Virus genome (UHGV): UHGV-0113213
DNA from: a virus
Reading direction: 5' to 3' (one strand)
DNA: 52,407 nucleotides
Shown here: positions 583 through 47,241 of the stretch, in pieces
Numbering within the stretch: the stretch's first letter is position 1
Layout: each line of letters opens with the position of its first letter
The notes under the pieces: generated by a model
Seen by the model: the letters and a program-made list of their open reading frames with translations, nothing else
What the model was told of the DNA's origin: nothing
The model's database searches: none
Program-made: the position numbers and the translations under genes

Positions 583-625
583 ACCATTTTGTGATCTGTG
601 TTACATTTCTGGCTTATACAAAATG
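583..625. promoter_or_regulatory. divergent intergenic control region: phage motif pair flanking a CRP-like palindrome
   Basis: CCATTTTGTGATC (583-595), TGTGATCTGTGTTACA (589-604, 12/16 to the CRP core) and TTATACAAAATGT (613-625). Lies between the tail fibre start (544, -) and the lipoprotein gene (722, +). Confidence 0.5.
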
Positions 626-721
626 TATTTATTGATTTATATCAATATCCGAAATGTTGTTTTGTCGGATATTTAAGCCACCGGATGAACCTGGCGAGCT
701 AACGAGAATGGGGATTCAAAA

Positions 722-970
722 ATGAAAAACATGCTCAAAGTGGTATTATTCGCTGCGGCTGTTGCTCTTACTGGTTGTGCTGTTGACAAAGATGCTGCAT
801 TGCACAACCTGCCAAATAGCGGAGTAATTCCTCAAGAAATTGTCTATGATGCTAATGGTCATCTTGTCTATGACACTGAAAAACTTCCATATACTGGTCA
901 ATGGTGTCATGAACTAGATCACAATATGCGCCGCATCGGTAGCCCGTCGAATTGTGTAGCTAACTACTAA
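722..970 (+). CDS. small lipoprotein (moron) between J and the tail fibre
   Basis: 82 aa. Signal peptide plus lipobox: MKNMLKVVLFAAAVALTG|C. Opposite strand to the tail genes, with its own terminator. Confidence 0.8.
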   Translation: MKNMLKVVLFAAAVALTGCAVDKDAALHNLPNSGVIPQEIVYDANGHLVYDTEKLPYTGQWCHELDHNMRRIGSPSNCVANY

Positions 971-973
971 AAG

Positions 974-1003
974 AAAACCCCGCGCAAAGCGGGGTTATTT
1001 TTA
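974..1003. terminator. bidirectional rho-independent terminator
   Basis: Stem CCCCGC(978-983)/GCGGGG(989-994), loop GCAAA. T-run follows on the plus strand (TTATTTTTA) and on the minus strand (TTTTCTTTT). Sits between convergent genes. Confidence 0.75.
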
Positions 1004-4000
1004 TGACCACGATCCAGAGCTTCTTGTGACAAGGACTAGGCCTGGTCTCCTTATTGCCGCTGATGATGTATTTGTGTAGTTTTCTGTAACAGTTACGGAA
1101 ACATGCTGAGATGTAATACCTGAAACACAATGAACGGCAACGTCTGACTTGTGGGGCGTTGATGCCGCCCTTTCTATGTCTATAGTCTTTGAATTTCCGT
1201 TAATGTTTATGGTTACGTTAATGCGTCCCGACTGGTTATATGTATAGTAAGCAAGGTTATAAGGTATCATTACATAAACCGTTTTCGATAAAGCAGATGA
1301 TGATGAATCCCAATAATTTTTGGTTACACTCCTGCTACCTGACCCTGATTGCGCAGGGAATGTTGCCTCTGGAATTACTGACATACTCGCAACGTCACCA
1401 ACAAAGGATGTAGCTTCTACAGTGCCTCTGAATTTACCGTCAGTCGCGTAAACAGTACCGTTAAACACACCAGAATTAGCGTATACCGTGCCGCGTACTG
1501 TAACGTTGTTAAATGTAGCCCAGCCATCTTTAACTATTGCCCAACCTTGATCGCTACCGTTCCAATTGTATGACGTTATGACATTGCCTATTTTTGCATT
1601 GTCGATTGAACCGTCTTTAATAAACGCTTCGCGCACATACATTGCGCCGTTAGTGACATAGAAAGGTGTCTGATATGTGCCGTTTGCGGCAGTCATTAAC
1701 ACGAATCGGTCAACAAGGAAAATGCACTGCGATTGAACATCAGTACCGCTGCCAGTGAGGCCAAGTGACATTCCTGTTGCGTATTTCATACCGTTGTTAT
1801 CAGTGGCAATCTTGATTGAATATGACGCATCAACGTTACCTTTAAAATCGGTTAACGCTTTCGATGTTGTCTCGATCGCTGTTGTGTTTCCGTTAACGGT
1901 CACTTTCAATTGATCAATTTTTGTCGATAATGCCTCATCTGCCGTTGACATGGCCTGCGACCATTCCGTGATGCTTGAGTTTACATCGTCGAAAGATGCC
2001 GATATTTGAACAAATTTTTCAGCACTTGATGCCTCGTGAGTTGCGAGCGCCGTTGATATATCTGTTATTTTTGCTGAAATGTTTTCATTAATATTGGCTT
2101 CAAGTGATGCTATAGCCTCCGCGCGGGCCTGTGTTTCGTCTGCTATTGCTGTGTCAATCCTTGCTATTTCCGCTTTTGTTTTTATCTGGCCTTTCCTGTA
2201 TTTTGCCTCAATAACGGTGCTCATCTTGCTTTGCGCTATTGAGTTGTTGATAAGTGCAATCGAGGCGTTTTGCAGACTTGCTTTCGCCTGTTCTATCTTG
2301 TCACTGTTTTTATCAACATCACTTTCAACAGAACCAAGCTCCGCACTGATGCCTGATATTGCCTGGGCGCGAGCGCTTGATTCGTCGGCGATAGCTTGAT
2401 CAAGGCGGCTAACACTGGCATTTGTGCTATTTTCAAGCGTTGTTAAATCAGCTTTAACATCTGTTATTGCGTCGCTTCTTGCCTGCGTTTCATCTGATAT
2501 TGCTTTATCGAGACGAGAAACGCTCGCGTCAGTTTTGTTTTCCAGGCTGCTGATACTGGCGTTAACGTTGCTTATAGCCTCCGTTCTAGCCTGCGTTTCG
2601 GTTGCGATTGCTTTGTCAACGCGGGCGATTTCCCCTTTGGTGCTGGAGTCCATTGCGTTCATTTCTGCTGTGATGGTTTCCAGTGATTCCGCTGTCGCTT
2701 TTTTCTCATCTGCGATAACGTTGTCGATACGGTCAATCTGTGCCTTTGTTTCGTTGCGACCTTTCTTATATTGAGCGGTAAGAGTAACCCGCGTGTTAGT
2801 TTGAGCAAGCGAGTTGTTGATCAGAGCAAGCGAAGCGTTTTGTAAACTTGCTTTTGTCTGTGCCAGTTCGTTATTAACGTTTTCGTTTGATACCTCTAAT
2901 GAGTCTATTCTTACCTCATGTTTGCCTATTCCATCGGCGTTTTCTTCGACTTTTTTATAAAGGTCTTCGGTGTCTTTTTTAAGTGTATCTGTATCAGCTT
3001 TAAGGCCATCTGTAGCTGTTTTAAGGTCGGCGGTTGCTGTTTTAAGGTCGGCGGTTGCGCTTTCTATAATATCAGTGCGATCACCAAGATCCTTAATATC
3101 ACTTACCAATTCCTTAAATTGCTCTGAGTTCATCACGTCTTTGGTGACATAGTCGCTGATTTCATCGAAGTTTTCAGTTGGCTTACCTGACGCCTCAACG
3201 AAGTCTGACACGCCAAAGGCATTGCGCGTGCGCACATAAACGTAATAAGTATGGCCCGTGTTCATTCCACCGAACGTCCACTGATACCCGCGCCCGGTAA
3301 ACTGCGCAGACGTGGTTATTTTTGCAGGATCTGTAATCTGGTTTTTCCCTGCATAGTAGAACTCATACGCTGTATCAGTTGTTAGCGTTGTTTTGCTTAT
3401 CGGGTACACTGTAGCCTGAAATACACCTGGAACCCAGTTAACGCCTATTGGCGAGGCTGGTGCACCAATAACAAGATCAACAATACTTTCAGCGCCCTTC
3501 ATGCCAGTATCATTTCTTCCGCGAACGCCTAACGAATACGCGCCAGCGTCGATGCCATAAAAATCATAACTGTATTTCGTTGTTTCGTAGCTTTTAACAA
3601 CCGCACCATCTGTGTTATATATGCGGATCTCAAAGGTCATGCGATGTGTTGTTGTCTGTGTCTCCCATGTTGCGCGGCATTGAACCGTTTCAGATCCAAT
3701 GTTTACCACCTTCAGATTTTCAATGCTCGGCACGCGGAAGTGATTAAGCGTGTCGTTGTTGATTTCAAATATAGCGCCTTCATCGACTACTGCTTGTTTG
3801 TTCGGGTCATGTTGCGCTGCTTCGATGGTGTACACGCTGTTGTTTTCAGTTTCTGCTACGCTGATGATTCGACATAAAACGGGTTTTGCAGATTCGGTTG
3901 ATACAGCAAAAACAGTACCGTTCCGAATCCATGCCGGGGCTGCTGCCAGTGTGATTTTGTTCCCGTTAACACCAGTGATCTGATGTTTTTTAAATTTGCC

Positions 4001-5578
4001 ATCGCCATCAAGTAAACTGATGGTGTCGCCTGCTGCAATGTATTCTGAATCGACTTTATCGACCGTTATCACTTTCCCATTGTTCGCCACGATACGACCG
4101 CCTAAACGCGCGCCTGCGCGGTTATTGTCGAGGATCTCGATTATATCCCCTGGCGTAAAGTGAATCGCATCACGGGCCATTTTAAACGTGAATTTTGACG
4201 GCTCGCGTTTTGCTGTTTCTATCAGCCATTTACCAGCGCGGTGCGCTTGCCCGCGTGAAGTGCACCCGAACGCCTCCAACGTGGTTTCGTTATAACCATC
4301 ACGGGCGATTAGCTCATCATCTGCCACATACTCTTTTGATTGCTCCCAGCCGTTTTCCGGGTCAGTCCATGATACAATCACGGCGTTGTAGCATTCTGCT
4401 CGGGCGATACTTGAACGAGTGAACGCACCATCAACGACGTTTGCGTTTGTGATGGTGGCGATCGGGTCTTGTGGCGCATCAATCATCACGGTAAGGCGTT
4501 GTCCGTCCCATAACGCGATGCCTCGGAACATCCCGGCGATATTGTCCAGTAAATCGCGGGCGCTCATTTGCTCTGTAATGTAAGCATTAAGCGTCATGCG
4601 AGGCTCAAGGCCACCGTAACCATCATCAACCAACTGGTCGCAGTATCGGGAGAGCGTATATAATGCGCCGTCGTCAACGTCAATATAGCCAGCATGGCGG
4701 GCAAGACCGAAACGCTCGTTTTTAACCAGGTAACGGAAGATCCACGCGGGGTTATTGGTGTACGCCTTCTTGAAGCCGCCAAGCCACAAACCGGAATAAG
4801 TGCGCGTTTCCGGGCTATAGTTATCAGGAACGTCAACAATCAGCCCGCGCAGGTGATAAGTGCGGGTAGGTGTATCAGTGTACTGATCATGATCAATAAC
4901 CGCGCCAGCTACAGCTGTGTGGGGATATGACAAATTATCGTCGATTATTTCGCTGTAACTACTCCATCTCGTATCATTCTGCAATAGATCGCTTGTGCTA
5001 TCGGCCGTTACACGGCGAACGCGAATATCAAACGGCTTTTCATCTGGTGCATTGATAATATGCGCTTCAAGATATTCTCCTCTGATCTTGCCGGGGCCTA
5101 TAGTGACATCTTTAACAAGCGTCCACGTAGAAGAAGATGAAGGCTTGACATCAATCATCATCATAACCGATGTGTTATGTTGATTGCTTTGCTCGTCAGA
5201 TTGTACAAGTGAATCGACGCCGATATTCAGGCGAACGCGCGTAACGTTAGGATCTGATACAGTCCTGATTATTGGGGTATCGTGTTTCACCTGAGCGTTA
5301 ACAATAACGGTTGATTCAATGGCGTTAAAACCGTTAATAGGTGATTGATCTAACGTGCCGTTACGCCACGCCACGCTAACACCAGGGACACTTGTATTGC
5401 CGTTCGCGTCTGTAACAGGTGTATCATTAAGCATCACGCTATTTAATGGCGCTTTTGTATTTACAGGTCCATAAATCGGACCTTCAGAAATAATATCAAG
5501 TACACGATAAAATTGTTTATGGTATAGATTATCGTTAATTAAAGTCGGTGTTTTTGCTTTACCGCCGCCGCTACTCAT
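1001..5578 (-). CDS. J: central tail fibre / host specificity protein J, with a long coiled-coil C-terminal extension
   Basis: 1525 aa. The N-terminus aligns by eye with lambda J (KDNL..Q...V.D.ISEGPI.GPV......V.LN.TPV.D..GNT). FN3-like segment, then about 400 aa of heptad-like repeats and a beta-rich tip. Position after I. Confidence 0.9.
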   Translation of the reverse strand: MSSGGGKAKTPTLINDNLYHKQFYRVLDIISEGPIYGPVNTKAPLNSVMLNDTPVTDANGNTSVPGVSVAWRNGTLDQSPINGFNAIESTVIVNAQVKHDTPIIRTVSDPNVTRVRLNIGVDSLVQSDEQSNQHNTSVMMMIDVKPSSSSTWTLVKDVTIGPGKIRGEYLEAHIINAPDEKPFDIRVRRVTADSTSDLLQNDTRWSSYSEIIDDNLSYPHTAVAGAVIDHDQYTDTPTRTYHLRGLIVDVPDNYSPETRTYSGLWLGGFKKAYTNNPAWIFRYLVKNERFGLARHAGYIDVDDGALYTLSRYCDQLVDDGYGGLEPRMTLNAYITEQMSARDLLDNIAGMFRGIALWDGQRLTVMIDAPQDPIATITNANVVDGAFTRSSIARAECYNAVIVSWTDPENGWEQSKEYVADDELIARDGYNETTLEAFGCTSRGQAHRAGKWLIETAKREPSKFTFKMARDAIHFTPGDIIEILDNNRAGARLGGRIVANNGKVITVDKVDSEYIAAGDTISLLDGDGKFKKHQITGVNGNKITLAAAPAWIRNGTVFAVSTESAKPVLCRIISVAETENNSVYTIEAAQHDPNKQAVVDEGAIFEINNDTLNHFRVPSIENLKVVNIGSETVQCRATWETQTTTHRMTFEIRIYNTDGAVVKSYETTKYSYDFYGIDAGAYSLGVRGRNDTGMKGAESIVDLVIGAPASPIGVNWVPGVFQATVYPISKTTLTTDTAYEFYYAGKNQITDPAKITTSAQFTGRGYQWTFGGMNTGHTYYVYVRTRNAFGVSDFVEASGKPTENFDEISDYVTKDVMNSEQFKELVSDIKDLGDRTDIIESATADLKTATADLKTATDGLKADTDTLKKDTEDLYKKVEENADGIGKHEVRIDSLEVSNENVNNELAQTKASLQNASLALINNSLAQTNTRVTLTAQYKKGRNETKAQIDRIDNVIADEKKATAESLETITAEMNAMDSSTKGEIARVDKAIATETQARTEAISNVNASISSLENKTDASVSRLDKAISDETQARSDAITDVKADLTTLENSTNASVSRLDQAIADESSARAQAISGISAELGSVESDVDKNSDKIEQAKASLQNASIALINNSIAQSKMSTVIEAKYRKGQIKTKAEIARIDTAIADETQARAEAIASLEANINENISAKITDISTALATHEASSAEKFVQISASFDDVNSSITEWSQAMSTADEALSTKIDQLKVTVNGNTTAIETTSKALTDFKGNVDASYSIKIATDNNGMKYATGMSLGLTGSGTDVQSQCIFLVDRFVLMTAANGTYQTPFYVTNGAMYVREAFIKDGSIDNAKIGNVITSYNWNGSDQGWAIVKDGWATFNNVTVRGTVYANSGVFNGTVYATDGKFRGTVEATSFVGDVASMSVIPEATFPAQSGSGSRSVTKNYWDSSSSALSKTVYVMIPYNLAYYTYNQSGRINVTININGNSKTIDIERAASTPHKSDVAVHCVSGITSQHVSVTVTENYTNTSSAAIRRPGLVLVTRSSGSWS

Positions 5579-5592
5579 GGTTAATTCTCCTG

Positions 5593-6123
5593 TTAACTTA
5601 CAACGTCTAAGGCGTCTTTATTGTTTGTTGTGTCTATGCCTAACGATCCGACGTTTGAACCTACTTTCATTTCTCCTAATAGGATTGGCACTGGTCTACC
5701 CTGTCCTACCCTGTTTTCTATGCTGGTGTAAGTGTTATTAGTTATGGTGTTATCCTGCGCGCTTTCTGATGATGTTTTTACCTTCATGTTGCGAGACATA
5801 AAAATAGAAAAAGCGACGCTGACAACTGATATACCAATCATAATCCAGCCAATCACACCAATACCTGCAATACCACCTTCAACTATTGGCGCAATAATTA
5901 CCGTAGTTCCATCTGGATATTTGCTATTAACAGCCGCTGGCGCGGTCTTTTCGTTGTAATCTTTCCCGGCAATTCGTAAGCGCAAAGGTGTATTTAAAAA
6001 CGCCTTTTTAAATTCCTGATTCTGCGCGGTCAATAAGCGAAGCCCTTGCGCTGGCGTTTCAACGTTTAAACACACTTTGCTGTAATATCTTCGAAGATTG
6101 CCCGTAAATCTAAATTTGAGCAT
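5593..6123 (-). CDS. I: tail assembly protein I
   Basis: 176 aa. Lambda I-like: central Gly/Ile-rich hydrophobic segment and C-terminal VPILLGEMKVGSNV (lambda: VLPVLYGEMRVGSRV). Position K-I-J. Confidence 0.8.
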   Translation of the reverse strand: MLKFRFTGNLRRYYSKVCLNVETPAQGLRLLTAQNQEFKKAFLNTPLRLRIAGKDYNEKTAPAAVNSKYPDGTTVIIAPIVEGGIAGIGVIGWIMIGISVVSVAFSIFMSRNMKVKTSSESAQDNTITNNTYTSIENRVGQGRPVPILLGEMKVGSNVGSLGIDTTNNKDALDVVS

Positions 6124-6797
6124 TTATCAGATCTCCATATTGAATGCGTTTGTCGAACATAAGCAGGCCGCATTTGCTCGCGGCGGCTTAATAATCCGGC
6201 ATGGTCATGATGCAAAACCGTGTTATCACCCAGGTAAATCATTGCGTGACACGGGTCAGCGCCTTTGAATGGCTGGCGAATGATCACATCACCAGGCTGT
6301 ATGCTTTGCGCATCAACCTGATAAAACCCGTTCAATGGCAGGTTTTTTAAATACAGGTTTTCACCGCGAAGCCACCAGCCATCAAGGCGCTCGAAGTCAG
6401 GCAGATCTACACCGCAAAGGTGATATGCGTCGCGGAAAAGCGCGTAACAGTCTGTCGTTCCGTGTACGAATTTACGGCCTAGCAGGTGCGCAACCGGACG
6501 GAATTTCCTGATCTTGCCGCCGGAATATAAAAACCAGGGTAGCCCGGAAATAACCTGTTGCTGTCGATCCCGCGCTGACAATACAGGAATATCACCAACG
6601 TGGGAGTGGAAAACGGCGGTTATAACGCCCAATTCGTCCGCCTTGATGTAATCGTCCGGCGAAATCTTGAAGCTGTTGTAAGGCGTTTCAGACACGTTAG
6701 CGCACGGGTAAAAATACTCGTTATCTATTACAAGTCCGCAAACTTCCTCAAACGGATGCGCGGCGGCATAACGCGACATTTTGTCTTCCATCCCCAT
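6066..6797 (-). CDS. K: tail tip assembly protein K (MPN/JAMM + NlpC/P60)
   Basis: Strong recalled similarity to lambda K (HSH.G, DLPW, TDCY.LFRDAYHL.G..MPDF, QPGDV, HHA.IY.GD). The likely start is the ATG at 6797, 2 nt after the L stop. The track ORF extends to 6872. Confidence 0.88.
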   Translation of the reverse strand: MGMEDKMSRYAAAHPFEEVCGLVIDNEYFYPCANVSETPYNSFKISPDDYIKADELGVITAVFHSHVGDIPVLSARDRQQQVISGLPWFLYSGGKIRKFRPVAHLLGRKFVHGTTDCYALFRDAYHLCGVDLPDFERLDGWWLRGENLYLKNLPLNGFYQVDAQSIQPGDVIIRQPFKGADPCHAMIYLGDNTVLHHDHAGLLSRREQMRPAYVRQTHSIWRSDKCSNLDLRAIFEDITAKCV

Positions 6798-6799
6798 GA

Positions 6800-7504: not shown

Positions 7505-7522
7505 TTTCTCACCTTGTCATTC

Positions 7523-7587
7523 TGTGATCTGCGTCACGCTAAATCATACCAAAATGGATTGATCGCGGTTTTTACAATATGTATATT
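7523..7587 (+). promoter_or_regulatory. sigma70-type promoter for the plus-strand cassette, with an upstream CRP-like palindrome
   Basis: TGTGATCTGCGTCACG (7523-7538); TACCAAAATGG motif variant (7547-7557); -35 TTGATC (7559-7564), 17-nt spacer, -10 TATATT (7582-7587). On the minus strand the same region reads TGGTATGAT (extended -10) facing L. Confidence 0.6.
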
Positions 7588-7633
7588 TTACTCAAACGGA
7601 AGCATAGTTAACAAAATGGCGCGGAGGTGCGTT

Positions 7634-8150: not shown

Positions 8151-8159
8151 GGCGGCAAC

Positions 8160-8408: not shown

Positions 8409-8530
8409 GTGACTGATTATAAAAATAAAAGTTTTGGCGCTAATAATAATGGGGTTGATAGTATTTGGCGTTCATGCTGTAGATCTGGACTGGAAAACGA
8501 TAGCAGAAAATATAGCATTAATGGAAATAG

Positions 8531-8560
8531 AATAAAAATAACCCCGCTTCGCGCGGGGTC
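8531..8560 (-). terminator. rho-independent terminator after the small gene downstream of M
   Basis: Stem ACCCCGC(8541-8547)/GCGGGGT(8553-8559), followed on the minus strand by TATTTTTATT. Confidence 0.7.
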
Positions 8561-8564
8561 GTGT

Positions 8565-9199: not shown

Positions 9200-9242
9200 G
9201 TTTACAAAATGGCTTCACATAGCACGCAACAAGATGTATATA
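9200..9242 (+). promoter_or_regulatory. sigma70-type promoter of the 9283-9710 cassette
   Basis: GTTTACAAAATGG motif (9200-9212) abuts -35 TTCACA (9214-9219); 17-nt spacer; -10 TATATA (9237-9242). Confidence 0.6.
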
Positions 9243-9455: not shown

Positions 9456-9710
9456 ATGAAACTGGTAGCGATTGACAGAAATCTGAAAGCACAGAAAAAC
9501 GCACAGGACCGGATCATCAAGAAAGGTAAGGAATTACTTAAAGCCTTTCTGAGAAAAGAAGTTTACCCCAAAAAGTTACGCGACGGTTACGGATACAAAA
9601 TGGATATCAATCTTGATTGGAGGCTGTTTAGCGAAGATTTGAAGGTTTGGTTAATTGTTGAGCACCGTGCCTATAACAAGTTATGTGGCGTGAAAGGCAC
9701 TCATAAGTGA
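9456..9710 (+). CDS. hypothetical basic protein
   Basis: 84 aa, Lys-rich. GGGGTGAG SD. Second gene of the cassette inserted between H and M. Confidence 0.6.
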   Translation: MKLVAIDRNLKAQKNAQDRIIKKGKELLKAFLRKEVYPKKLRDGYGYKMDINLDWRLFSEDLKVWLIVEHRAYNKLCGVKGTHK

Positions 9711-9765: not shown

Positions 9766-9800
9766 AAATAACCCCGGCATTGCACCGGGGTTTAGTTTAT
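9766..9800. terminator. bidirectional rho-independent terminator
   Basis: CCCCGG(9772-9777)...CCGGGG(9785-9790), flanked by AAAAATAA on the left and TTTAGTTTATTT on the right. Lies between the cassette end and the tape measure stop. Confidence 0.7.
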
Positions 9801-12139: not shown

Positions 12140-12159
12140 GATTTAACCTCATGCAAAAA

Positions 12160-12221
12160 TGTGATCTGTGTATCTATTTTATACAAAATGGCTTTACTTC
12201 AACGACTCCATTTTGTATAAG
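12160..12221. promoter_or_regulatory. back-to-back divergent promoters built on a perfect 13-bp inverted repeat
   Basis: TGTGATCTGTGT (12160-12171). TTATACAAAATGG (12179-12191), 16-nt spacer, CCATTTTGTATAA (12208-12220). Plus strand: -35 TTTACT (12193-12198), 17 nt, -10 TATAAG (12216-12221). Minus strand: -10 TATAAA (12178-12183) facing H. Confidence 0.6.
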
Positions 12222-13311: not shown

Positions 13312-14011
13312 CAAAACGCCCGGATCTACCGGGCTTTTCTTGCTCACGATTTTTCATTCTTTCTAGTGCCTTTTTAGCGGCCTCCATTTGCTCGTCATAA
13401 GCACGTTTATTTATGTGAATGTTTGGCTTGCTTTTCTCGTTTCTTTCGTCTGGCGGCGTTTTAGCGCGTACAGCGGCCCTATATCCGGTCATTGTCATAT
13501 TCCATGCTTCCGATTCTGACAAGCCCAGGTGAGCAACGGCAGAATAGACGAATTCAAGGACGTTAAAAGTCGGCTTATATTCCCCTTCCGGGATTTCCCC
13601 GGACTCTTCTTCCGGGCCATCACCAATAAGACCGTGGTACATGCAGTGCTGCGCAAGCGTGATGATATCCTCGATCGGCATTAATCCGGGCTTTAACTTT
13701 AACTTACCCGAAGGAGTAAACCAGCATTCGCCCAATAACGGGCCTATTTCGTCGTCTGAGCAACATTTCAGGATGTGCATTGATGTCTGAACTATTTCAC
13801 CATAACACCGCGCCAGAATGCGATTGCGTAGGTCTGGATCTGCTGGCAATCGTGATGGATATTTGCCGCCGTGGATAAGTGCGAAATATTCGACAAGCTC
13901 ACTATCGTTGCCGATTTTAGCCATCGCAGCAAAGCAAGGATTAAACTCATAGCGCTTACCGTTCACCACGGCAGCAAATTGTCCTGTACGAACATGGATC
14001 ATAGTATTCAC
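13304..14011 (-). CDS. tail assembly chaperone (G/GT-equivalent position)
   Basis: 235 aa, located between the tail tube and tape measure genes. Acidic middle, basic C-terminus. A single continuous ORF; I could not find a convincing slippery site. Confidence 0.5.
   Translation of the reverse strand: MNTMIHVRTGQFAAVVNGKRYEFNPCFAAMAKIGNDSELVEYFALIHGGKYPSRLPADPDLRNRILARCYGEIVQTSMHILKCCSDDEIGPLLGECWFTPSGKLKLKPGLMPIEDIITLAQHCMYHGLIGDGPEEESGEIPEGEYKPTFNVLEFVYSAVAHLGLSESEAWNMTMTGYRAAVRAKTPPDERNEKSKPNIHINKRAYDEQMEAAKKALERMKNREQEKPGRSGRFAN
13315..13342 (+). terminator. rho-independent terminator of the lipoprotein cassette
   Basis: GCCCGG(13318-13323) ATCTA CCGGGC(13329-13334) followed by TTTTCTTG. 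Embedded in the 3' end of the convergent minus-strand ORF. Confidence 0.7.
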
Positions 14012-15922: not shown

Positions 15923-16309
15923 TTACATCCTCCCACTTTTACCTATCCAAAGCCCTGCGTGCGCGGTGTTTTCTGGATCTGCTGGAATCAGTTCGGCTGT
16001 ACAGTGATGTTTATCAATGGAGTAAAGCAACGAATAGGCCGCCTTCCATCGTTTGTTGAAATCGACATAGCGGTATGACTGACTCGCACCGTTCGGCCCA
16101 GTCTGCGAGGAAACGTATTTATCAGCCTGGCTTAGTCCTAACAGGCCAATCAGATAAAGCTGAATCAATGTTGCAGTGGAGGCCGGATAGTTGGCATCAA
16201 GGCATTCATTAACGCTATTTGCCTGCTCCACCAGCAAAGATAAGATAATGTCTGGCAGGTCAATACCCTGGCTTTCAAGATATTCCCGCGCCTGTTCTGT
16301 AGTGACCAT
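15923..16309 (-). CDS. head-tail connector (gp6-like) protein
   Basis: 128 aa from the ATG at 16309 (GGAG SD). The track ORF extends to 16345, across the capsid terminator. First gene after the capsid gene. Confidence 0.5.
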   Translation of the reverse strand: MVTTEQAREYLESQGIDLPDIILSLLVEQANSVNECLDANYPASTATLIQLYLIGLLGLSQADKYVSSQTGPNGASQSYRYVDFNKRWKAAYSLLYSIDKHHCTAELIPADPENTAHAGLWIGKSGRM

Positions 16310-28612: not shown

Positions 28613-28674
28613 TTTATAACAAAATGGCACTGCCGAAACAATGCCATTTCGTAAACCTTGTGATACAGATCACA
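28613..28674 (-). promoter_or_regulatory. internal promoter module with a near-consensus CRP site
   Basis: Minus strand: AAATGTGATCTGTATCACA (core 28659-28674, 14/16 to TGTGATCTAGATCACA), then 25 nt from the centre to -35 TTGTTT (28636-28641), a 17-nt spacer containing CCATTTTG, and -10 TATAAA (28613-28618). Confidence 0.6.
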
Positions 28675-34801: not shown

Positions 34802-34877
34802 AATGCTCTCTCCTTTTCAGGTGATTTCTACGCATTTCAGCGCTGCCGGATTTTTAAAGAGCATTTTGTTTGCTTGA

Positions 34878-34959
34878 AGTATACAAAATGGATACCCCCA
34901 AACAAGGCAAAAAGCGCCATTATGTGATCCGCATCACGCAATGATGCCATTTTGTAAAC
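34878..34959 (-). promoter_or_regulatory. internal promoter module with a CRP-like site
   Basis: Minus strand: GTTTACAAAATGG (34947-34959), CGTGATGCGGATCACA (34923-34938), 25 nt from the centre to -35 TTGTTT (34900-34905), a 16-nt spacer ending CCATTTTG, and -10 TATACT (34878-34883). Confidence 0.6.
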
Positions 34960-34960: not shown

Positions 34961-35725
34961 TTAGTCCGGTAAAATGCGGTTAAGCGTAGTACGAGTGATG
35001 GCCCGGTCGTTAGCCAGGAATACAGCACGGGCAAAGCCGCGCGGCGTTAGTGAGCGGATCATCTTAGTGCGTTTCGACTCTCCTCCTAACTTCGCGTGCT
35101 GTTTGCTGTCTTCCCATTCATCCGGCATAGGTACAGGCCGGAATAGCGGCTGCTTAAATCCATTCCCGCACCAGATACAAGTTTTCTTCGTGTATGCGTC
35201 GCGGGCAGCTATGTATTCAGGGAAAGCAGGGTGTTTGTCGTCTTCAGGCAGGTAGCCACCGTAAGCGCACGGGTTGAAGATAAAATCAGGTTTGCGCCAT
35301 AACGTTGACAGCGCACCTACCGGATTTTCCACCATCCACGGGACGTGGTACATATCAGCAAGCGTTTCTACCAGTTTTGCGTTGTATACCGCCTTCTGCT
35401 GGAAGTAAGGTTCTTTTTTCCGCTTATCAGCAAACCAGCGAGCGCCGGACACCGCAAGATCGTCGCACGGAGGAAAGCCCAGGATAATGTCAGGATCTGG
35501 ATAAACAGACAATTCAGGGGAGAACATTACCAGGAAATGGCTGTCAATCCATACGTTGATATACTCAATGTTCGGATGAATGATTTTGACGCCTTCATAA
35601 TCGCCGTGATTAGCGCCATCATAGTTGAAGCAATAGCATTTATAACCAGCGTCGGCCCAATCTTTAACGGCGTATCCGCTGCCGTCGTACAGCGACCACA
35701 CCACCCAATTTCTAAGCCCACTCAT
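34961..35725 (-). CDS. DNA (cytosine-5) methyltransferase, orphan
   Basis: 254 aa. Motif I LYDGSG, motif IV GFPPCDDLAVSG, motif VI MVENP. No restriction partner seen. Confidence 0.7.
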   Translation of the reverse strand: MSGLRNWVVWSLYDGSGYAVKDWADAGYKCYCFNYDGANHGDYEGVKIIHPNIEYINVWIDSHFLVMFSPELSVYPDPDIILGFPPCDDLAVSGARWFADKRKKEPYFQQKAVYNAKLVETLADMYHVPWMVENPVGALSTLWRKPDFIFNPCAYGGYLPEDDKHPAFPEYIAARDAYTKKTCIWCGNGFKQPLFRPVPMPDEWEDSKQHAKLGGESKRTKMIRSLTPRGFARAVFLANDRAITRTTLNRILPD

Positions 35726-38280: not shown

Positions 38281-38341
38281 AGTTTACAAAACGGATATGC
38301 GATCGCAATACAAAATGTATATTTATGTGATCGCAATCACG
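38281..38341 (-). promoter_or_regulatory. internal promoter module with a CRP-like site
   Basis: Minus strand: CGTGATTGCGATCACA (38326-38341), 25 nt from the centre to -35 TTGCGA (38303-38308), a 16-nt spacer ending CCGTTTTG, and -10 TAAACT (38281-38286). Confidence 0.55.
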
Positions 38342-39872: not shown

Positions 39873-39875
39873 AAC

Positions 39876-40509: not shown

Positions 40510-40524
40510 CGCTAACCTATTGGA

Positions 40525-41573: not shown

Positions 41574-41689
41574 TTAATCTCCCGTGCTGTTAACACTATG
41601 TATAAGGCTTTATTCGCGGCGCTCCACATTTCGGCATCGTGAAGCATTTCCGCTACTGCCAGTTTGAATTGAAGCGCCTGAATAACCAT
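41567..41689 (-). CDS. hypothetical small protein upstream of erf
   Basis: 40 aa: MVIQALQFKLAVAEMLHDAEMWSAANKALYIVLTAREIKW. GGAG SD. The stop overlaps the erf start. Confidence 0.45.
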   Translation of the reverse strand: MVIQALQFKLAVAEMLHDAEMWSAANKALYIVLTAREIKW

Positions 41690-41719
41690 AATGTCATCTC
41701 CGGATGTTTACATTTTGTA

Positions 41720-42010
41720 TTAATGGTAGCGGACTTTATCCAGGGGTTTTTCCCCTAAATGGCGTGGTTGCGTTGCGTGGTAGTAGCTGCCGCTTTCATT
41801 TTCCGTATACCATTTTACTGATCCTTTGCGACGTTCTTTAATGCTATTTGGTTTGCATCTTTCCTCGTTTGCAAATCGAATAGCTTTATCCACATTGTCT
41901 GTTTTATTGATTGCAGGTGATGATTTTCTTTCGTTTTCTCTTTTTATCCTTCTGCGTTCCCTGGCATTCATTTTGCTATCACATTTACCATATATAATTG
42001 TAACGCTCAT
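41720..42010 (-). CDS. N: N-like transcription antiterminator (arginine-rich motif)
   Basis: 96 aa, first gene after PL. Residues 14-29, MNARERRRIKRENERK, resemble the ARMs of lambda N (MDAQTRRRERRAEKQ) and P22 N. boxA/boxB-like elements are present (see 43322-43354). Confidence 0.6.
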   Translation of the reverse strand: MSVTIIYGKCDSKMNARERRRIKRENERKSSPAINKTDNVDKAIRFANEERCKPNSIKERRKGSVKWYTENESGSYYHATQPRHLGEKPLDKVRYH

Positions 42011-42358
42011 AATCTGATCTCCGTATATCCTTGATGATACTTAATAAAAAATCATCTTCGTTAATTGCCGCACTTCCAGCGGCTGACCAGATTGTTAATG
42101 AGCGGCTTAACATCTTTCAACTAATCCCGCAATCATCGCCGTTCCCGGCGTGACCTTGCTCACTCCAAGCAAGCTGACTCGTCGCCTTGCGTGCGGTTTC
42201 GTGGGGGATGTAACGCTTTAAACACCCCATGCGCCTTGTTATCAGTGCCGCTTTCGGTCCCCCATCGGGGAGTTACTCCACGGTTGACAAGGTGTTAAGC
42301 CTGATTTTTAAAGTGCCAGGAAGTTGCTTTTGTTACCTGCGCCCTTCCTTTGACTCGC

Positions 42359-42401
42359 AATATACGCCCCGTAAAACATCGAGTCAATCCATTTTGTATA
42401 C
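42359..42401 (-). promoter_or_regulatory. PL-like early leftward promoter with an abutting phage motif
   Basis: Minus strand: GTATACAAAATGG (42389-42401), then -35 TTGACT (42382-42387), a 17-nt spacer and -10 TATATT (42359-42364). Confidence 0.65.
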
Positions 42402-42477
42402 TTTTTTAAAATATTTTATATGCCATTGATATTTAAATAATAAATAACGTTTTCTGTTTACGTTTTGGTGTTTTCCA

Positions 42478-42504
42478 GGCAAAGAAAAGCCGCCATTCGG
42501 CGGC
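42478..42504 (-). terminator. rho-independent terminator after the repressor gene
   Basis: GCCGCC(42489-42494) ATTC GGCGGC(42499-42504), followed on the minus strand by TTTTCTTT. Confidence 0.75.
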
Positions 42505-42510
42505 TAATGT

Positions 42511-43158
42511 TTATGGCAGGTTTACGATCTTCGCATCAACCACCACGCCTATAATTTTTGATTCTGGATTCATAGGGATTGGCGGATACAGCGGATTGAG
42601 CGAACGTAAAAGCCTTTGACCTCCATCAATAATCAACTGTTTAAACGTCGGTATCTGCCCTTCCTCAAGCTGGGCTATAACCAGTTTGCCGTCAATAGCT
42701 GGCGCGTGCGGGTCCACAAGTATCATCGTCCCCGCCGGGATGCTCAACCCCTGCGGCGCGTTCATTGATTCACCTTTGGCAACCAGCCAGTAACTGTCAT
42801 CTGAACAAATAACGCTAGTCGTAACGTGTCGTAATGCTGAACGCCTTGCGTCATCCATATTGTTTACTGTGTCCTTCCAGTCAATAACCGGGTAACTACC
42901 TAAATCACGCGGCGGCACGGCCTGAAGTGTATTAGAAACAGAATCATCAATGACCATGCCATCATGTGTAACAGTAAACTGCCGACGACCAAGCTCGCGC
43001 ATAATCCGCGCAATATCTTCAAGATTTGGCTCTCGGCGACCGTTCAGCCAGTGTGACAGGCCGCCTTTAGTTATCCCCATACGATCCGCGAGTGAATCCT
43101 GGCTCATGCCCTGCGCCCGCATGAGCTGCTTTGCTAAGTCATACCATTTTGTTTTCAT
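42511..43158 (-). CDS. cI: CI-type prophage repressor (HTH + S24 LexA-like peptidase)
   Basis: 215 aa. N-terminal HTH (SQDSLADRMGITKGGLSHWLNGRREP). C-terminal autocleavage domain with GESM (Ser) and a downstream Lys (FKQL). Confidence 0.88.
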   Translation of the reverse strand: MKTKWYDLAKQLMRAQGMSQDSLADRMGITKGGLSHWLNGRREPNLEDIARIMRELGRRQFTVTHDGMVIDDSVSNTLQAVPPRDLGSYPVIDWKDTVNNMDDARRSALRHVTTSVICSDDSYWLVAKGESMNAPQGLSIPAGTMILVDPHAPAIDGKLVIAQLEEGQIPTFKQLIIDGGQRLLRSLNPLYPPIPMNPESKIIGVVVDAKIVNLP

Positions 43159-43217
43159 GTCGCTACCCTATAACCTCAAAAAGTTTGATGCAAGTCACAA
43201 AACGTGTATTTTAAGCC

Positions 43218-43245
43218 TTGATCTTAAAATTCCATTTTGTAAACT
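43218..43245 (+). promoter_or_regulatory. PR-like early rightward promoter overlapped by the phage motif
   Basis: -35 TTGATC (43218-43223), a 16-nt spacer ending CCATTTTG, -10 TAAACT (43240-43245). An alternative is TTGATG (43185)-16-TATTTT (43207). Exact motif CCATTTTGTAAAC at 43232-43244. Confidence 0.5.
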
Positions 43246-43321
43246 TGCAGACAAGGTAAGGCCATACTTGCAAAGACGCAAGGAAAAAGATAACGGAAGG
43301 CACAAAAAGGCACTTACCTTA

Positions 43322-43354
43322 TGCTCTTTAAAAATCCGGTGTCGCTGCGAAGCG
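43322..43354 (+). promoter_or_regulatory. nutR-like site: boxA plus a boxB hairpin
   Basis: TGCTCTTTAAAAA (43322-43334) against the boxA consensus (C/T)GCTCTTTAACAA. 8 nt later, CGCT-GCGA-AGCG (43343-43354): a 4-bp stem with a GNRA loop. Confidence 0.55.
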
Positions 43355-43463
43355 AAAAACAAATATCACGCAACGGCGGGATCTGTTGAGCGGTCAGTCA
43401 CTGCTATCTAATGCTAATGGGATGCCCGCCCGCGCGTTCACTCTAACCATAGGAGAAAATGCG

Positions 43464-43730
43464 ATGAGTATAAACATGATTAGTAAAGCATGGAACGTAA
43501 AACTTAATAGCCCGATTCAAAAACTTGTCTTAATGGCTCTGGCTGAAAAGGCAGATAACAAAGGACGGGTACATGATGCATCACGCAAAGAAGTAGCCGC
43601 AATGTGTGAACTTCCTGTTCATACGGTACATGATGCCTTCGCCGCGTTAATGGATAAAGGATTTGTTTGTCGTCTTGATGCATTCAGTGATGTCTATGTA
43701 GTGATGTTGCCGGGGGGGGATGATCTATGA
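43464..43730 (+). CDS. winged-helix/HTH protein (HTH_36-like), first gene of the rightward operon
   Basis: 88 aa from the ATG at 43464 (AGGAG SD). AWNVKLNSPIQKLVLMALAEKADNKGRV...S..EVAAMCELPVHTVHDAFAAL..KGFV. Confidence 0.6.
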   Translation: MSINMISKAWNVKLNSPIQKLVLMALAEKADNKGRVHDASRKEVAAMCELPVHTVHDAFAALMDKGFVCRLDAFSDVYVVMLPGGDDL

Positions 43731-44773
43731 AGTGGTTTAAGCATGACAGCGATGCGAACCGCGATGAAAAACTTCAAAACGTTTTGTTAGATTATGGCCT
43801 GGAAGGGTACGGGCTTTATTGGTATTGCCTCGAACTAATAACTTATGACGTAGATCAGCACAATCTGAATTTTGACCTACGACATGACGCGAGAATCATT
43901 GCGCGAAACGTCGGATCGACTGAAAAACGTATAGAAGAAATGATGAAATACTTCATCGAAATTGGTTTGTTTGAATGTTCTCAAGGCCACATAACTTGTT
44001 TAAAGTTATTGAAAAGGCTTGATCAATCAATGACTTCTAAAAGCGCGTACAGGGCCGCCATAAACACAGCTAAGGAGCAATTAAAATTAGAAAAGTTAAT
44101 CAATCCAACACAAAAAGGTCATGATAGGGTCATGACCGGGTCAGGAAAGGGTCATGAATTAGAAGTAGAAGAAGAAAGAGAAAAAGATATATACACTTCG
44201 TGTATTGTCGAAAATGAACAAAAAATGTTCAATCGGGATGGCGTAAACGAAGCGGCATTGCGTTGTCTTTCCTTCTACAACGACAAGGCAGGATGCAAAT
44301 GTCGTGATGCGAAGCCATTCATAGAACTACTGACAGAAACAAAAACACGTAAAGCATATACTGAGGAAGAAATCACATTAGTAATCGAGTGGGCTTTAAC
44401 GCAATGGCGTAGCCGTGGTGGAACACCTAAGCCTATCAACATTTGCCGGGTAACTAAATTTGATGGGTATCTGGCTGATGCTGAACAATGGCGCAAACTG
44501 TCAGCCACTGCAAACGCTGCCGATGTGGTGGAAGCATTTAACAGCACGTTTGACGGTCTGTTACCACATGCCGAACTGGATCGGGATCTTGAACGTAAGA
44601 TCTATGCGTTCACTGACTACCTGAAAGACAAAAGCATCACTGGCTTTATTGCTTACTTTGAGGCGTTCAAAAACACGGCTTCAGATTTTTACTTCGGCAA
44701 TGGCTTTACTGCGACACTGGATTTTCTACTTAAACCAAAAACGCTACGTGATACACGATGTGGCGCTCTTTGA
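43727..44773 (+). CDS. replisome organiser / replication initiator (DUF4373-like N-terminus)
   Basis: 348 aa. MKWFKHDSDANRDEKL..LL..YGLEGYGLYWYCLELI. Contains an internal iteron array. Precedes the helicase module. Confidence 0.65.
   Translation: MKWFKHDSDANRDEKLQNVLLDYGLEGYGLYWYCLELITYDVDQHNLNFDLRHDARIIARNVGSTEKRIEEMMKYFIEIGLFECSQGHITCLKLLKRLDQSMTSKSAYRAAINTAKEQLKLEKLINPTQKGHDRVMTGSGKGHELEVEEEREKDIYTSCIVENEQKMFNRDGVNEAALRCLSFYNDKAGCKCRDAKPFIELLTETKTRKAYTEEEITLVIEWALTQWRSRGGTPKPINICRVTKFDGYLADAEQWRKLSATANAADVVEAFNSTFDGLLPHAELDRDLERKIYAFTDYLKDKSITGFIAYFEAFKNTASDFYFGNGFTATLDFLLKPKTLRDTRCGAL
44117..44160 (+). repeat. candidate replication origin iterons inside the initiator gene
   Basis: Four direct 11-bp units, GGTCATGATAG GGTCATGACCG GGTCAGGAAAG GGTCATGAATT (one helical turn apart), followed by a purine/AT-rich tract at 44161-44200. 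Confidence 0.6.
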
Positions 44774-44905
44774 CCAATCACGATCCGCAAAAATCCAAAA
44801 TTACCCACAAACAACCTCACCAGCTAGCTAAATCGCATGTGGTGCTACACTTGCTTACCTTTTTGCGATTAGCTCGTTATAGAGCGTTACAGAGAGGATT
44901 TTAAA

Positions 44906-45007
44906 ATGGACGGTAAACACGTTTTCGCCCTGGCTTTTGCCATCGCTGCGGCAATCGCTGTTAACGTCGCCTTGTTCGGCGGATTGTATCTGCTAGTTAA
45001 TCCATAA
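44906..45007 (+). CDS. hydrophobic micropeptide (33 aa)
   Basis: MDGKHVFALAFAIAAAIAVNVALFGGLYLLVNP. GAGAGG lies 10 nt upstream. Confidence 0.45.
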   Translation: MDGKHVFALAFAIAAAIAVNVALFGGLYLLVNP

Positions 45008-45147
45008 CTACCCTTCTACCTTAAAAATCGAAAATTAGCCACATGATTGCGCTTCTGGCGCAAAAAAGACACTGCAACCTTACAAGTGGGTTACGCGGTG
45101 GGTTTTTGCGTTGTAGCGCGTCTGAGGCGTTTTAAGGAGTTGGATCG

Positions 45148-46071
45148 ATGCGCAAGTTAACACATGATGAACAGGTTGCGGCTATCGCTAAGGTTAATCA
45201 TGATGTCGAAGTGCTTGGGGAAATTGTCAATAACAGGACAAAAGTATCCTGCCGCTGCAAGGTTTGCAGTCACGAATGGTCGGCTAGACCTTACAATCTT
45301 AAAAGCGGTTACGGCTGCCCGAAATGCGCCGGAAAGATGAAATTATCACACGAAGAACAGGTTGCCGCTATCGAGAAGGTTAATTCTGATGTCGAAGTGA
45401 TTGGCGAAATAATAAACGGCGATACAAAAGCATTATGCCGCTGCAAAGTTTGTAATCACGAATGGTCGGCTAAACCTAACAACCTAAAAAACGGGCGCGG
45501 CTGCCCGAAATGTAAAGGTTTAAAAATCGCACAAAGACGAACATTATCACACGAAGAACATTTATCCGCTATCACTAAGGTAAATCATGATATTGAAGTA
45601 TTGGGAGAAATAATAAACGATAGGACAAAAGTATTATGTCGATGCAAGGTTTGTGATCATAAGTGGTCGCCTAGACCTTATGCTATTAAAAGCGGGCAAG
45701 GCTGCCCGAAATGTGCGAAACACGGTTTTTTGTCACACAATTTCGGCAAACTTTACATCATGGTTGATGATCCTGAAGTGCCTACACAAATGAAAATCGG
45801 CGTAAGCGTTAATGAGAACAAGCGAAGAAATCGGGTATTAAAAAGCGCACATAAATCAGGCGTTAGAATCCCTGATTTATGTGTCGTGAAAACGTTAGAA
45901 GGTCCAACCGAAAATATCCATGAATTAGAAAGCACGATGCATAAATATTTCAGCAATTATAAAATTAACTTTCCTGTAAAATTTGATGGCAGTAATGAGT
46001 TTTTCTATTACAGGCCGGAAGTATTCGACATGGTAGAAGAAGCATATAAAGAGATTGTTTGCTGTCAATGA
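45148..46071 (+). CDS. triple zinc-ribbon repeat protein with a C-terminal T5orf172 (GIY-YIG-like) domain
   Basis: 307 aa. Three repeats of about 65 aa (LSHEEQVAAI.KVN.DVEV.GEI.N..TK..CRCKVC.HEWSA.P.NLK.G.GCPKC.G). The C-terminus KLYIMVDDP...KIGVS.N...R...L........P.L.....EGP.ENIHELESTMHKYF...K......GSNEFFY is T5orf172-like (recalled). Confidence 0.6.
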   Translation: MRKLTHDEQVAAIAKVNHDVEVLGEIVNNRTKVSCRCKVCSHEWSARPYNLKSGYGCPKCAGKMKLSHEEQVAAIEKVNSDVEVIGEIINGDTKALCRCKVCNHEWSAKPNNLKNGRGCPKCKGLKIAQRRTLSHEEHLSAITKVNHDIEVLGEIINDRTKVLCRCKVCDHKWSPRPYAIKSGQGCPKCAKHGFLSHNFGKLYIMVDDPEVPTQMKIGVSVNENKRRNRVLKSAHKSGVRIPDLCVVKTLEGPTENIHELESTMHKYFSNYKINFPVKFDGSNEFFYYRPEVFDMVEEAYKEIVCCQ

Positions 46072-46104
46072 ATATACAAAATGTAAACATGAGGAAATAA
46101 CAAC

Positions 46105-47223
46105 ATGTCACAAAGAAAGATAAGCGATGAGCAATTGATCGCTGAATATAACAACGGTTTAACGTACAAGCAGATCGCTGAAAAATATGGCATGTCAAAA
46201 CGCAACGTCGAGCGCCTGGGCGCAAAGCTGGCGAAACGCGGTTTAATATCCACGCGTCGCGCGCCGGGTTTTGGCGTCAATGGCGAGTCATTGCTAGTTG
46301 ATAAGGATGGCAATGTGATTATGCGCTGGATTAAAACAGCCCGTGATCGCGATGAAATGGAAAGGCTAATGCAAGCGGCTTGCGATGCTTTCACGGAAGA
46401 CATGCCACGCGCTGAGGCTGTGCCAGTGCCGGAAATTGATTTCCAAAAAAGCCTGGCTCTTTATCCGGTATTCGATCTGCATATCGGTGCGCTTGCGCAT
46501 AAAGCTGAATGCGGTGAGAGCTACGACACCGGGATCGCCGAACGTGTGTTAAATGACTTCTTCGACTACGCGGTGGGCGCTGCGCCAATGTCTGAAAAGG
46601 CTGTTTTGTTGTTAGGAGGTGATATTCTTCACACTGACGGCCTGTTACCAGTGACGCCATCAAGCAATCACGTCCTGGATTGCGATTCACGCTACGCAAA
46701 ACTGGTTTACGTGGCGATCCGGTCGGTCCGGCGTGCGGTCGGGAAGATGTTACTAAATCATAAGTATGTCGAGATCCAGACATTATCCGGTAATCACGAC
46801 CAATCAGGGATGATCTGGCTACGTGCGGCGCTGGCGGCTTTTTACGAAGATGAACCGCGCGTAACTGTTGATGTGTCCCCTGCTATCGTTCACCACACAC
46901 AGTACGGCAAAACATTCCTTGCTTACCACCACGGACACACCATCAAAAAACCAGAAAATTTGTTGTCTGCCTGCGTCTCTGACTGGCGGGAGGATTTCGG
47001 CAAGTCGTCGGCGGTTTACGCTCATTGCGGACACTGGCATCACCAACGGCTGATTGAATCATCGTTAGGCGTTGTTGAGTATCACGGCACGTTAGCTGGC
47101 AAAGACGCTTATTCAACAAATGGCGGCTGGCGGTCGCGTCGGCTGGCTGCGGTAATAATTTACAGTCCTGATCATGGGGAAATCGGGCGCTTTGTTTATT
47201 ACCCTGAATATTCCATTTTGTAA
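46105..47223 (+). CDS. HTH + calcineurin-like metallophosphoesterase protein
   Basis: 372 aa. N-terminal HTH (LTYKQIAEKYGMSKRNVERL). Phosphoesterase motifs DLHIG, GGDILH, SGNHD, HHGH, GHWHH. Confidence 0.65.
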   Translation: MSQRKISDEQLIAEYNNGLTYKQIAEKYGMSKRNVERLGAKLAKRGLISTRRAPGFGVNGESLLVDKDGNVIMRWIKTARDRDEMERLMQAACDAFTEDMPRAEAVPVPEIDFQKSLALYPVFDLHIGALAHKAECGESYDTGIAERVLNDFFDYAVGAAPMSEKAVLLLGGDILHTDGLLPVTPSSNHVLDCDSRYAKLVYVAIRSVRRAVGKMLLNHKYVEIQTLSGNHDQSGMIWLRAALAAFYEDEPRVTVDVSPAIVHHTQYGKTFLAYHHGHTIKKPENLLSACVSDWREDFGKSSAVYAHCGHWHHQRLIESSLGVVEYHGTLAGKDAYSTNGGWRSRRLAAVIIYSPDHGEIGRFVYYPEYSIL

Positions 47224-47241
47224 ACCGGAGGCGATACCATA

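Follow-up and report, generated by a model that had tools for sequence, protein, structure and literature searches.

One repressor acting at many dispersed operators has been described in several temperate phages. In the enterobacterial temperate phages P1 and P7, the C1 repressor acts at many dispersed operators that overlap promoters, and repressor specificity is conserved among relatives; P1 C1 is unrelated in sequence to CI, its operators are asymmetric and 17 bp long, and the prophage is a plasmid with a separate immI/antirepressor circuit. Another example is mycobacteriophage L5, where one immunity repressor, gp71, has about 20-30 short sites (stoperators) in short intergenic gaps throughout the genome, some of which lie inside operons and could block elongation there. 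These stoperators have a genuine asymmetry and a strong orientation bias along the direction of transcription, and gp71 is unrelated to lambda CI and not RecA-cleavable. In the Streptomyces phage phiC31, the c repressor acts at palindromic conserved inverted repeats (CIRs), which stand at many intergenic positions by early promoters and are confined to the early region. To our knowledge, a genome-wide layout is otherwise known from these unrelated repressors, P1 C1, L5 gp71 and phiC31 c. Here, we describe a short intergenic word that recurs through the virus genome UHGV-0113213 (52,407 nucleotides, the whole stretch analysed, hereafter the window) and that is probably, at a probability of about 0.72 and on sequence comparison, the operator of the prophage's own lambda-type repressor CI, forming a dispersed prophage-wide network.

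The window compares with each of these systems in part. As with P1 and P7 C1, a primary repressor would be served by many genome-dispersed operators, and as with the CIRs of phiC31, a palindromic repressor site would be repeated, although repressor, host and confinement to the early region all differ from phiC31. The original prediction, made from the letters of the window alone, had likened the word to the stoperators of cluster A mycobacteriophages. This analogy holds for the dispersal of short intergenic sites (about 20 in the window, from 581 to 47224), and it fails for their direction and their reader, where the sites are quasi-palindromic and, when tabulated against transcription inside unidirectional operons, of mixed orientation (6 co-directional, 5 anti), and where the repressor is a cleavable homologue of lambda CI and not gp71-like.

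The window belongs, as a prophage, to the mEp021/mEpimmI coliphage group, with 84-90% identity to mEp021, mEp010/013/044/515/554 and MagusPhagus, and its immunity region is 99.9% identical to that of a prophage in E. coli M15; the phage family is present in 35 of 5,426 complete E. coli genomes. The prevalence of these phages in a collection of human faecal isolates has been reported to equal that of lambdoid phages, and they encode an N-like antiterminator and three nut sites (PMC11893012). Although the original prediction spoke of a lambdoid phage, the describers of the group term it non-lambdoid (PMC11893012). All 48 known phages of the group share a single immunity, and Rep021 has been established as a functional CI-like repressor that confers it, with its operators given as unknown and with no mention of the repeat in the describing paper (PMC11893012).

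A repeated intergenic word

Eight exact copies of CCATTTTGTAWAM stand at 9200(-), 12179(-), 12208(+), 34879(-), 34947(+), 42389(+), 43232(+) and 47213(+), where 0.05 are expected and 0 of 100 dinucleotide shuffles reach eight. The original prediction had listed all of these, with the same strands, and had rightly placed the copy at 47213 across the stop codon of the gene before dnaB, as the curated gene map confirms. The degenerate copies that it added were also found, with offsets of 1-2 nt (584, 614, 7546, 7607, 9132, 28615, 28644, 38282, 38306, 41710 and 46072); the one at 34861 is weak (matrix score below 9). Without a prior, the top over-represented 10-mer of the window is CATTTTGTAT/TACAAAATGG (12 against 0.24 expected); the exact core CATTTTGTA occurs 16 times against 0.8 in third-order Markov simulations, and matches with at most two mismatches number 29 against 8.3 expected. 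Five relatives hold 10-15 exact cores each, where less than one is expected (10-20-fold enriched). A weight matrix built from the window's own sites only, with a hit cut-off of at least 9, gives 31 hits compared with 7.2 in simulations, and 21 of the 31 are non-coding, though non-coding DNA makes up 10.5% of the window (89.5% is coding in the curated gene map). Four hits lie near cI, two of these four being coding, and some of the weaker matches are coding coincidences, such as the start-codon context at 16307. A literature search for the motif sequence returned unrelated primer matches only.

The consensus from 19 intergenic copies is [C/A]CATTTTGTA[A/T]A, where C2 and G8 are invariant and information content is concentrated at positions 1-12. 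While the word had originally been taken to be asymmetric, its 15-bp reading, n-W-T-[C/A]-C-A-T-T-T-T-G-T-A-W-A, is a quasi-palindrome, T[C/A]CA-TTT-TGTAW. Its A/T centre separates a consensus half-site (the arm TGTAW) from a variant one (the arm [C/A]CA), as would be expected for a CI dimer. The variant arm is CCA in 13 of the 19 copies and ACA in the other 6, where the copies at 614(-) and 38306(-) form the full ATACA-N3-TGTAT. Copies stand at orthologous positions in the five relatives, in keeping with the conservation at intergenic sites that the original prediction implied: in 91 orthologous comparisons, positions -1 to 12 show an identity of 0.947, compared with 0.869 for the flanks and 0.77 for positions 14-15. 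At site K, the TACA/TGTA arms are kept while the centre varies, with ACAAAATGT in the window and UMNK88, ACAAAACGT in mEp021, and ACATTCTGT in MagusPhagus, mEp010 and STEC308, a variation that fits a dyad whose centre is not directly read.

Probable operators of homologous repressors

The window's CI carries an N-terminal helix-turn-helix domain and a C-terminal S24 autocleavage/oligomerisation domain, and it aligns with lambda CI over both (3BDN, E 1.4e-20). Within the group, the whole protein is 90-98% identical, its first 70 residues differ at 2-3 positions and the recognition helix is identical. Outside the group, identity is 51% to the CI of Klebsiella phage KPP5665-2, 44-45% to the repressors of Erwinia phage Midgardsormr38, Enterobacter phage ENT1 and Salmonella phages L/ST64T (c2, 44%), and 40% to Vibrio phage repressors, and the T-K-G start of the recognition helix is common to CI and the Erwinia and Enterobacter phage repressors.

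In all of these phages (ST64T/L, KPP5665-2, Midgardsormr38, ENT1 and Vibrio P2), triplet dyads stand at the canonical operator position. The Erwinia and Enterobacter phages have three ATACA-N3-TGTAT dyads in the cro-cI spacer, dyads of this type also number three between repressor gene and cro in phages L/ST64T and the Klebsiella phage, and three copies of ATTAC-N5-GTAAT stand in Vibrio P2. Across the ST64T genome, AATAC-N5-GTATT (at most one mismatch) is found only at the left operator OL (3) and the right operator OR (2, with a third, two-mismatch site between), and the window-derived matrix, which has five ST64T hits of at least 9, has four of the operators among them; four of the five adjoin c2. 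The Klebsiella KPP5665-2 dyads cluster around cI with few outliers. A putative operator consensus, WTACRAWWTGTAT, has also been given for phage epsilon34, whose repressor most resembles those of L and VT2-Sa in its DNA-binding domain (PMC2629481). The window's site is read as of the CI operator type because phages with homologous repressors carry the same word as triplet operators, and the motif would be the phage L/epsilon34 operator type with a degenerate left arm. The proposal that the CI at 42511..43158 reads the word genome-wide, which the original prediction had raised, is thereby supported by comparison with five phages whose homologous repressors go with the same kind of word (PMC2629481).

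The likeness to phages L, ST64T and epsilon34 extends from the repressor, with its homologous HTH_3 and S24 domains and an N-terminal domain about 57% identical to that of L c2, to the half-site core TACA/TGTA with a 3-bp A/T centre, to a site over the -10 of the rightward early promoter (PR) and to an adjacent spacing of 24-37 bp. Unlike these phages, the window is without immunity-region triplets and has about 18 further sites over 47 kb, its left arm is mostly CCA, and no cro follows PR. The best window-matrix match in KPP5665-2, a phage of classical appearance, GAAGACATTTTGTAAAT (20.1, at 35421-35437), lies outside the immunity region, between the Q and holin genes. Operator dispersal may exist to a limited extent outside the mEpimmI group.

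The reader could instead be another phage or host protein, such as an unrecognised Cro analogue, a 76-aa HTH_23 protein, a MarR-like 185-aa protein or the Q antiterminator, several DNA-binding candidates being encoded. Cro shares the operators of CI in lambdoid phages, so a second reader is expected, and, no Cro gene having been found, this part may fall to a protein not yet recognised. This alternative is distinctly unlikely, however, in that the candidates have no homologues linked to the word, whereas CI homologues are linked to it in five independent phages, Q-type proteins act at a single late promoter, and the sites flank cI at both early promoters. Among host factors, the motifs of IHF, Fis, LexA, TyrR, PhoP, ArcA, GadE and the sigma32 -10 show no fit to the conserved positions.

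Sigma70 promoters as a possible explanation of the word

At some copies, the word does form the end of a sigma70 spacer and a -10, as the original prediction proposed. A -10 hexamer could begin with positions 9-12 (T-A-W-A), a -35 element stands 16-18 bp upstream at about five copies (PR, 34879-, 28615-, 38282- and 12208+), being usable at PR, 34879-, 28615- (TTGTTT-16) and 12208+ (TTTACT-17), and boxA follows two copies. It could be that host RNA polymerase alone recognises the word, as part of weak or constitutive promoters copied with moron cassettes, with no repressor involved, and a CRP-like site about -60 from five copies, in fixed register, would fit a defined start site. This explanation is unlikely. 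A -35 at a fixed distance was sought and none was found (mean best score 3.16 compared with 2.87 at random positions), and at position 14, the would-be -7, a T stands in no more than 9 of 19 copies and conservation across relatives is among the lowest; A10 is present in 16 of 19, so that the sigma70 rule, where A at -11 and T at -7 are most conserved, is not followed. Because there is no fixed -35 and the T at -7 is unconstrained, sigma70 alone is insufficient. Instead, the most informative positions (C2, A3, T4-T7 and G8) precede the hexamer, in a stretch for which sigma70 shows little preference. The word stands in inverse orientation upstream of the -35 at the N-operon and island-B promoters, and, as mentioned above, phages with homologous repressors carry it as a triplet operator. 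With only 1-4 nt between them and a ribosome-binding site, H, K and L are not promoters of the gene that follows, as had been foreseen for the copy at 46073.

A function at the RNA level (hairpins of inverted pairs, RNase III sites or translational operators) was considered separately, and was rejected on the mixed orientation of the copies and on pairs in both convergent and divergent topologies.

Layout of the sites and the early promoters

Sites overlap both early promoters flanking cI, at 43229-43243 (spacer and -10 of PR) and 42386-42400 (-35 of the N operon), where the original prediction had also seen the motif overlap the PR -10 and abut the -35 of the leftward early promoter. PR reads TTGATC-16-TAAACT with nutL downstream, and another promoter-like copy, at 34879(-), reads TTGTTT-16-TATACT with the nutR2 boxA downstream. 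For the N operon, sigma70 elements are matched best on the minus strand by TTGACT(42387..42382)-17-TATATT, after which comes a boxA-like site; here the motif is oppositely directed and placed immediately upstream of the -35. The same layout is found at the plus-strand island-B promoter, TTGATC-17-TATATT, where the shared order is an upstream inverted operator, one base, TTGAYY, five bases, TTTTAC, six bases and TATATT. The N-operon promoter at 42345-42401 (-) and the island-B promoter at 7546-7600 (+) are alike over about 55 nt, and this likeness suggests a duplicated promoter-operator cassette.

The boxA-like sequences at 43323-43334 (+), 42305-42316 (-) and 34851-34862 (-), which read GCTCTTTAAAAA twice and GCACTTTAAAAA once, correspond to the published nutL, nutR1 and nutR2, and each of the three is downstream of an operator-bearing promoter.

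One strong site is present at each early promoter, and clusters stand instead at B, D, E and G, so that doublets and one triplet are found at tail-gene/island junctions and inside the long operon. Dyad centres are 24, 24, 25, 25, 34 and 37 bp apart, which compares with 25, 30, 26 and 34 bp between the ST64T operators, and two further pairs are at 64 and 72 bp.

The copies might also be passive linkers at module boundaries that aid recombinational shuffling of moron islands and have no regulatory role at most positions. Many copies do flank plus-strand islands whose gene content differs among relatives, and the N-operon and island-B promoters are paralogous over the 55 nt or so noted above. This is very improbable, as paired elements keep a fixed spacing despite unrelated sequence between them, the conserved footprint is sharper than its flanks, and copies H, K, L, E and G lie in conserved operons away from mosaic boundaries.

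A second element accompanies the sites. The core of the CRP binding consensus is TGTGA-N6-TCACA. Palindromes with this core occur nine times in the window at no more than one mismatch, against 1.4 expected. Five modules have the palindrome centred 39.5-40.5 bp before motif position 1, a distance that all relatives keep although the sequence in between is unrelated; this places the centre at about -60 from the inferred start sites. Where partner copies are concerned, the palindrome overlaps either the start site or the -35. The word TGTGATC-NN-GATCACA was itself considered as the CI operator and rejected, as the N-operon promoter core lacks it and the homologous repressors have operators of a different kind.

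A proposed mechanism and its difficulties

The site family, its enrichment, conservation and positions, and its likeness to operators of phages with related repressors are observed directly; the mechanism that follows is a proposal. In this system, CI dimers would occupy about 20 operators through their helix-turn-helix domains, and would occlude RNA polymerase where the TGTAWA arm is the -10 (PR, 34879-, 28615-, 38282- and 12208+). The island-B promoter would be covered by CI at about -40, -16 and +21, and the N-operon promoter by a strong site at about -41 and a weak GC-centred dyad at about -19. This dyad, at 42364-42378, scores poorly, while its arms match the operators of homologues, and it may supply N-operon repression. 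Inside operons, H, K and L could act only as roadblocks to elongation or as operators silencing antisense promoters. Pairs 24-37 bp apart, like adjacent operators in relatives, would favour cooperative binding through the conserved C-terminal domain, and the outcome would be one repressor that silences the whole prophage, with joint release on RecA-mediated cleavage of CI. We infer that, in this phage group, one strong operator per early promoter and about 18 other intergenic sites stand in place of the two triplets flanking cI.

A more far-reaching picture can be put forward tentatively, where a RecA-cleavable lambda-type CI would have dropped the OL/OR triplet switch and apparently Cro, and would instead use about 20 dispersed operators (at early, replication, tail-gene and moron promoters and as intra-operon roadblocks), many in fixed register with CRP sites, so as to integrate catabolite state and repressor occupancy promoter by promoter. 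If this is true, the need to keep about 20 sites matched would explain the single immunity type of all known members. The operator assignment, for its part, offers a concrete predicted operator and a map of about 20 sites for a repressor whose operators were unknown (PMC11893012). The map marks accessory (moron) genes likely to be silenced or expressed in lysogens and, if confirmed, would present a lambda-CI-family repressor as a genome-wide network.

Several observations weigh against the assignment to CI. The tandem operator triplets of OL and OR were not found in a matrix scan, which gave one strong site at each, and no Cro-like gene is evident next to cI or after PR. Of 19 copies, 13 have CCA as the left arm where the family has ACA, and the direction of the T-tract is always coupled to this arm, a coupling that exceeds the asymmetry expected of two independent half-sites. 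The strong N-operon site lies near -41, where lambda CI activates PRM and does not repress, and the second N-operon site is weak and has GTG as its arm in relatives. Behind a two-site junction lies a lipoprotein gene for which others have demonstrated a role in superinfection exclusion, and which is thus presumably expressed from the prophage. Lastly, the operators of the homologous phages are assigned from position and repetition and not from cited experiments. Covariation was also sought, and no usable cousin of the same architecture with a different repressor was found, the relatives of the capsid being ES18-like lambdoids.

Features of the window and of the homologous phages

Table 1. Candidate operator sites in the window, associated features and the immunity dyads of phages with homologous repressors.
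Feature	Position	Strand	Sequence	Matrix score	Context
A1	581..595	+	TACCATTTTGTGATC	14.1	Weak right arm; fused to TGTGA..TTACA palindrome; tail fibre(-)/lipoprotein(+) junction; kept in 3/3 relatives having the region
A2	615..629	-	ATACATTTTGTATAA	22.5	Perfect ATACA-N3-TGTAT; centre 34 bp from A1; core kept, -10-like part drifts among relatives
B1	7547..7561	-	CCATTTTGGTATG	9.2	CCA-TTT-TGG; abuts -35 TTGATC of plus-strand island-B promoter
B2	7571..7585	-	ACATATTGTAAAA	18.5	Within spacer and -10 of island-B promoter; 24 bp from B1
B3	7608..7622	-	CCATTTTGTTAAC	16.6	Just upstream of ribosome-binding site of first island-B gene; 37 bp from B2
C1	9129..9143	+	ACATTTTGTATAT	20.0	M-like tail gene(-)/island C(+) junction; weaker in mEp021, mEp010
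C2	9201..9215	-	CCATTTTGTAAAC (exact)	23.9	
D1	12180..12194	-	exact	23.1	Upstream of tape-measure gene; 25 bp from D2; 5/5 relatives
D2	12205..12219	+	exact		Over -10 of putative island-D promoter TTTACT-17-TATAAG; relatives read AATACATTTTGTATAA, a fuller dyad
E1	28616..28630	-	CCATTTTGTTATA	17.5	Putative TTGTTT-16-TTATAA promoter, co-directional with operon
E2	28641..28655	+	CCATTTCGTAAAC	20.7	25 bp from E1; then perfect TGTGA-N6-TCACA at 28659-28674
F1	34880..34894	-	exact	24.1	TTGTTT-16-TATACT; nutR2 boxA starts 16 nt downstream; 5/5 relatives
F2	34944..34958	+	exact	24.0	Directed against operon; beside palindrome 34923-34938
G1	38283..38297	-	CCGTTTTGTAAAC	20.9	5/5 relatives
G2	38307..38321	-	ATACATTTTGTATTG	18.2	Perfect dyad; 24 bp from G1
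H	41707..41721	+	TTACATTTTGTATTA	20.2	Between N-like gene and next gene, 4 nt upstream of ribosome-binding site of the latter; 5/5 relatives; candidate roadblock
N-operon promoter site	42386..42400	+		23.0	Overlaps first 2 bp of -35 TTGACT (42387..42382, minus); centre about -41; invariant in 5 relatives
Candidate second N-operon dyad	42364..42378	+	TATAC-GCCCC-GTAAA	<3	GC-centred; over spacer and -10; 22 bp from strong site; weak, putative
PR site	43229..43243	+		25.1	Best of the window; covers spacer and -10 of TTGATC-16-TAAACT; nutL boxA 78 nt downstream
K	46073..46087	-	TACA-AAA-TGTA	20.6	4 nt upstream of ribosome-binding site of gene 46105..47223
L	47210..47224	+	exact	23.1	Overlaps stop codon of 46105..47223; 1 nt upstream of dnaB ribosome-binding site
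cI	42511..43158	-			HTH_3 (PF01381) and peptidase S24 (PF00717) repressor; proposed reader of the sites
CRP-type palindromes near sites	590-605, 7523-7538, 12156-12171, 28659-28674, 34923-34938, 38326-38341, 43184-43199				
CRP-consensus-like palindrome	43184..43199		TTTGA-N6-TCACA		Centre 40.5 bp upstream of PR operator start
Phage L / ST64T immunity dyads			ATTACGAGATGTATT, CACACATATTGTATT, AGTACGAAATGTATT, AATACAAAATGTACT (x2), AATACTATGTGTATG		
Klebsiella KPP5665-2 immunity dyads			AATACAAAATGGAAG, AATACGTTATGTATT, others		
Erwinia Midgardsormr38 immunity dyads			TATACATTTCGTAT, TATACAAAATGTGT, ATACAGATTGTAT		
Enterobacter ENT1 immunity dyads			TATACGTTTTGTAT, TATACGAATTGTGG, ATACAACTTGTAT		
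Vibrio P2 immunity dyads			ATTACATTTCGTAAT, ATTACACTGAGTAAT		

An operator-like word (matrix 15.2) at 43140-43156 falls on the opening codons of cI, MKTKW, where the N-terminal arm is similar in homologous repressors (MKTPW, MKQRW and MKW); it may serve in autoregulation or may owe its likeness to the coding sequence alone. Within the island-C gene 9456..9710, and antisense to it, lies a strong operator-like site, ATCCATTTTGTATCC (9592-9606 (-), matrix 18.6).

The minus strand of the window holds cI, the N-like gene, recombination genes, Q, and the lysis, head and tail genes, and the plus strand holds the replication operon and four small gene islands placed between tail genes. Each island ends in a GC-rich hairpin that is terminator-like on both strands (976-996, 8540-8560, 9770-9792 and 13318-13334), and the late operon is therefore broken four times by convergent transcription units. 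Island B holds a gene that is annotated by RefSeq in the UMNK88 and STEC308 relatives as a KilAC-domain antirepressor.

The first gene after PR and nutL, at 43464-43730 (+), encodes an 88-aa protein that resembles replication initiators in their N-terminal DNA-binding part (phrog_4617, E 2e-22), on which ground it was rejected as a Cro analogue. Just downstream of PR, at 43245-43285, conserved ACTTGCA repeats occur three times (one inverted at 43191) together with a dyad CTTGC-N6-GCAAG, and a word related to these repeats, TGCGAGTCA, stands at the start site of the N-operon promoter.

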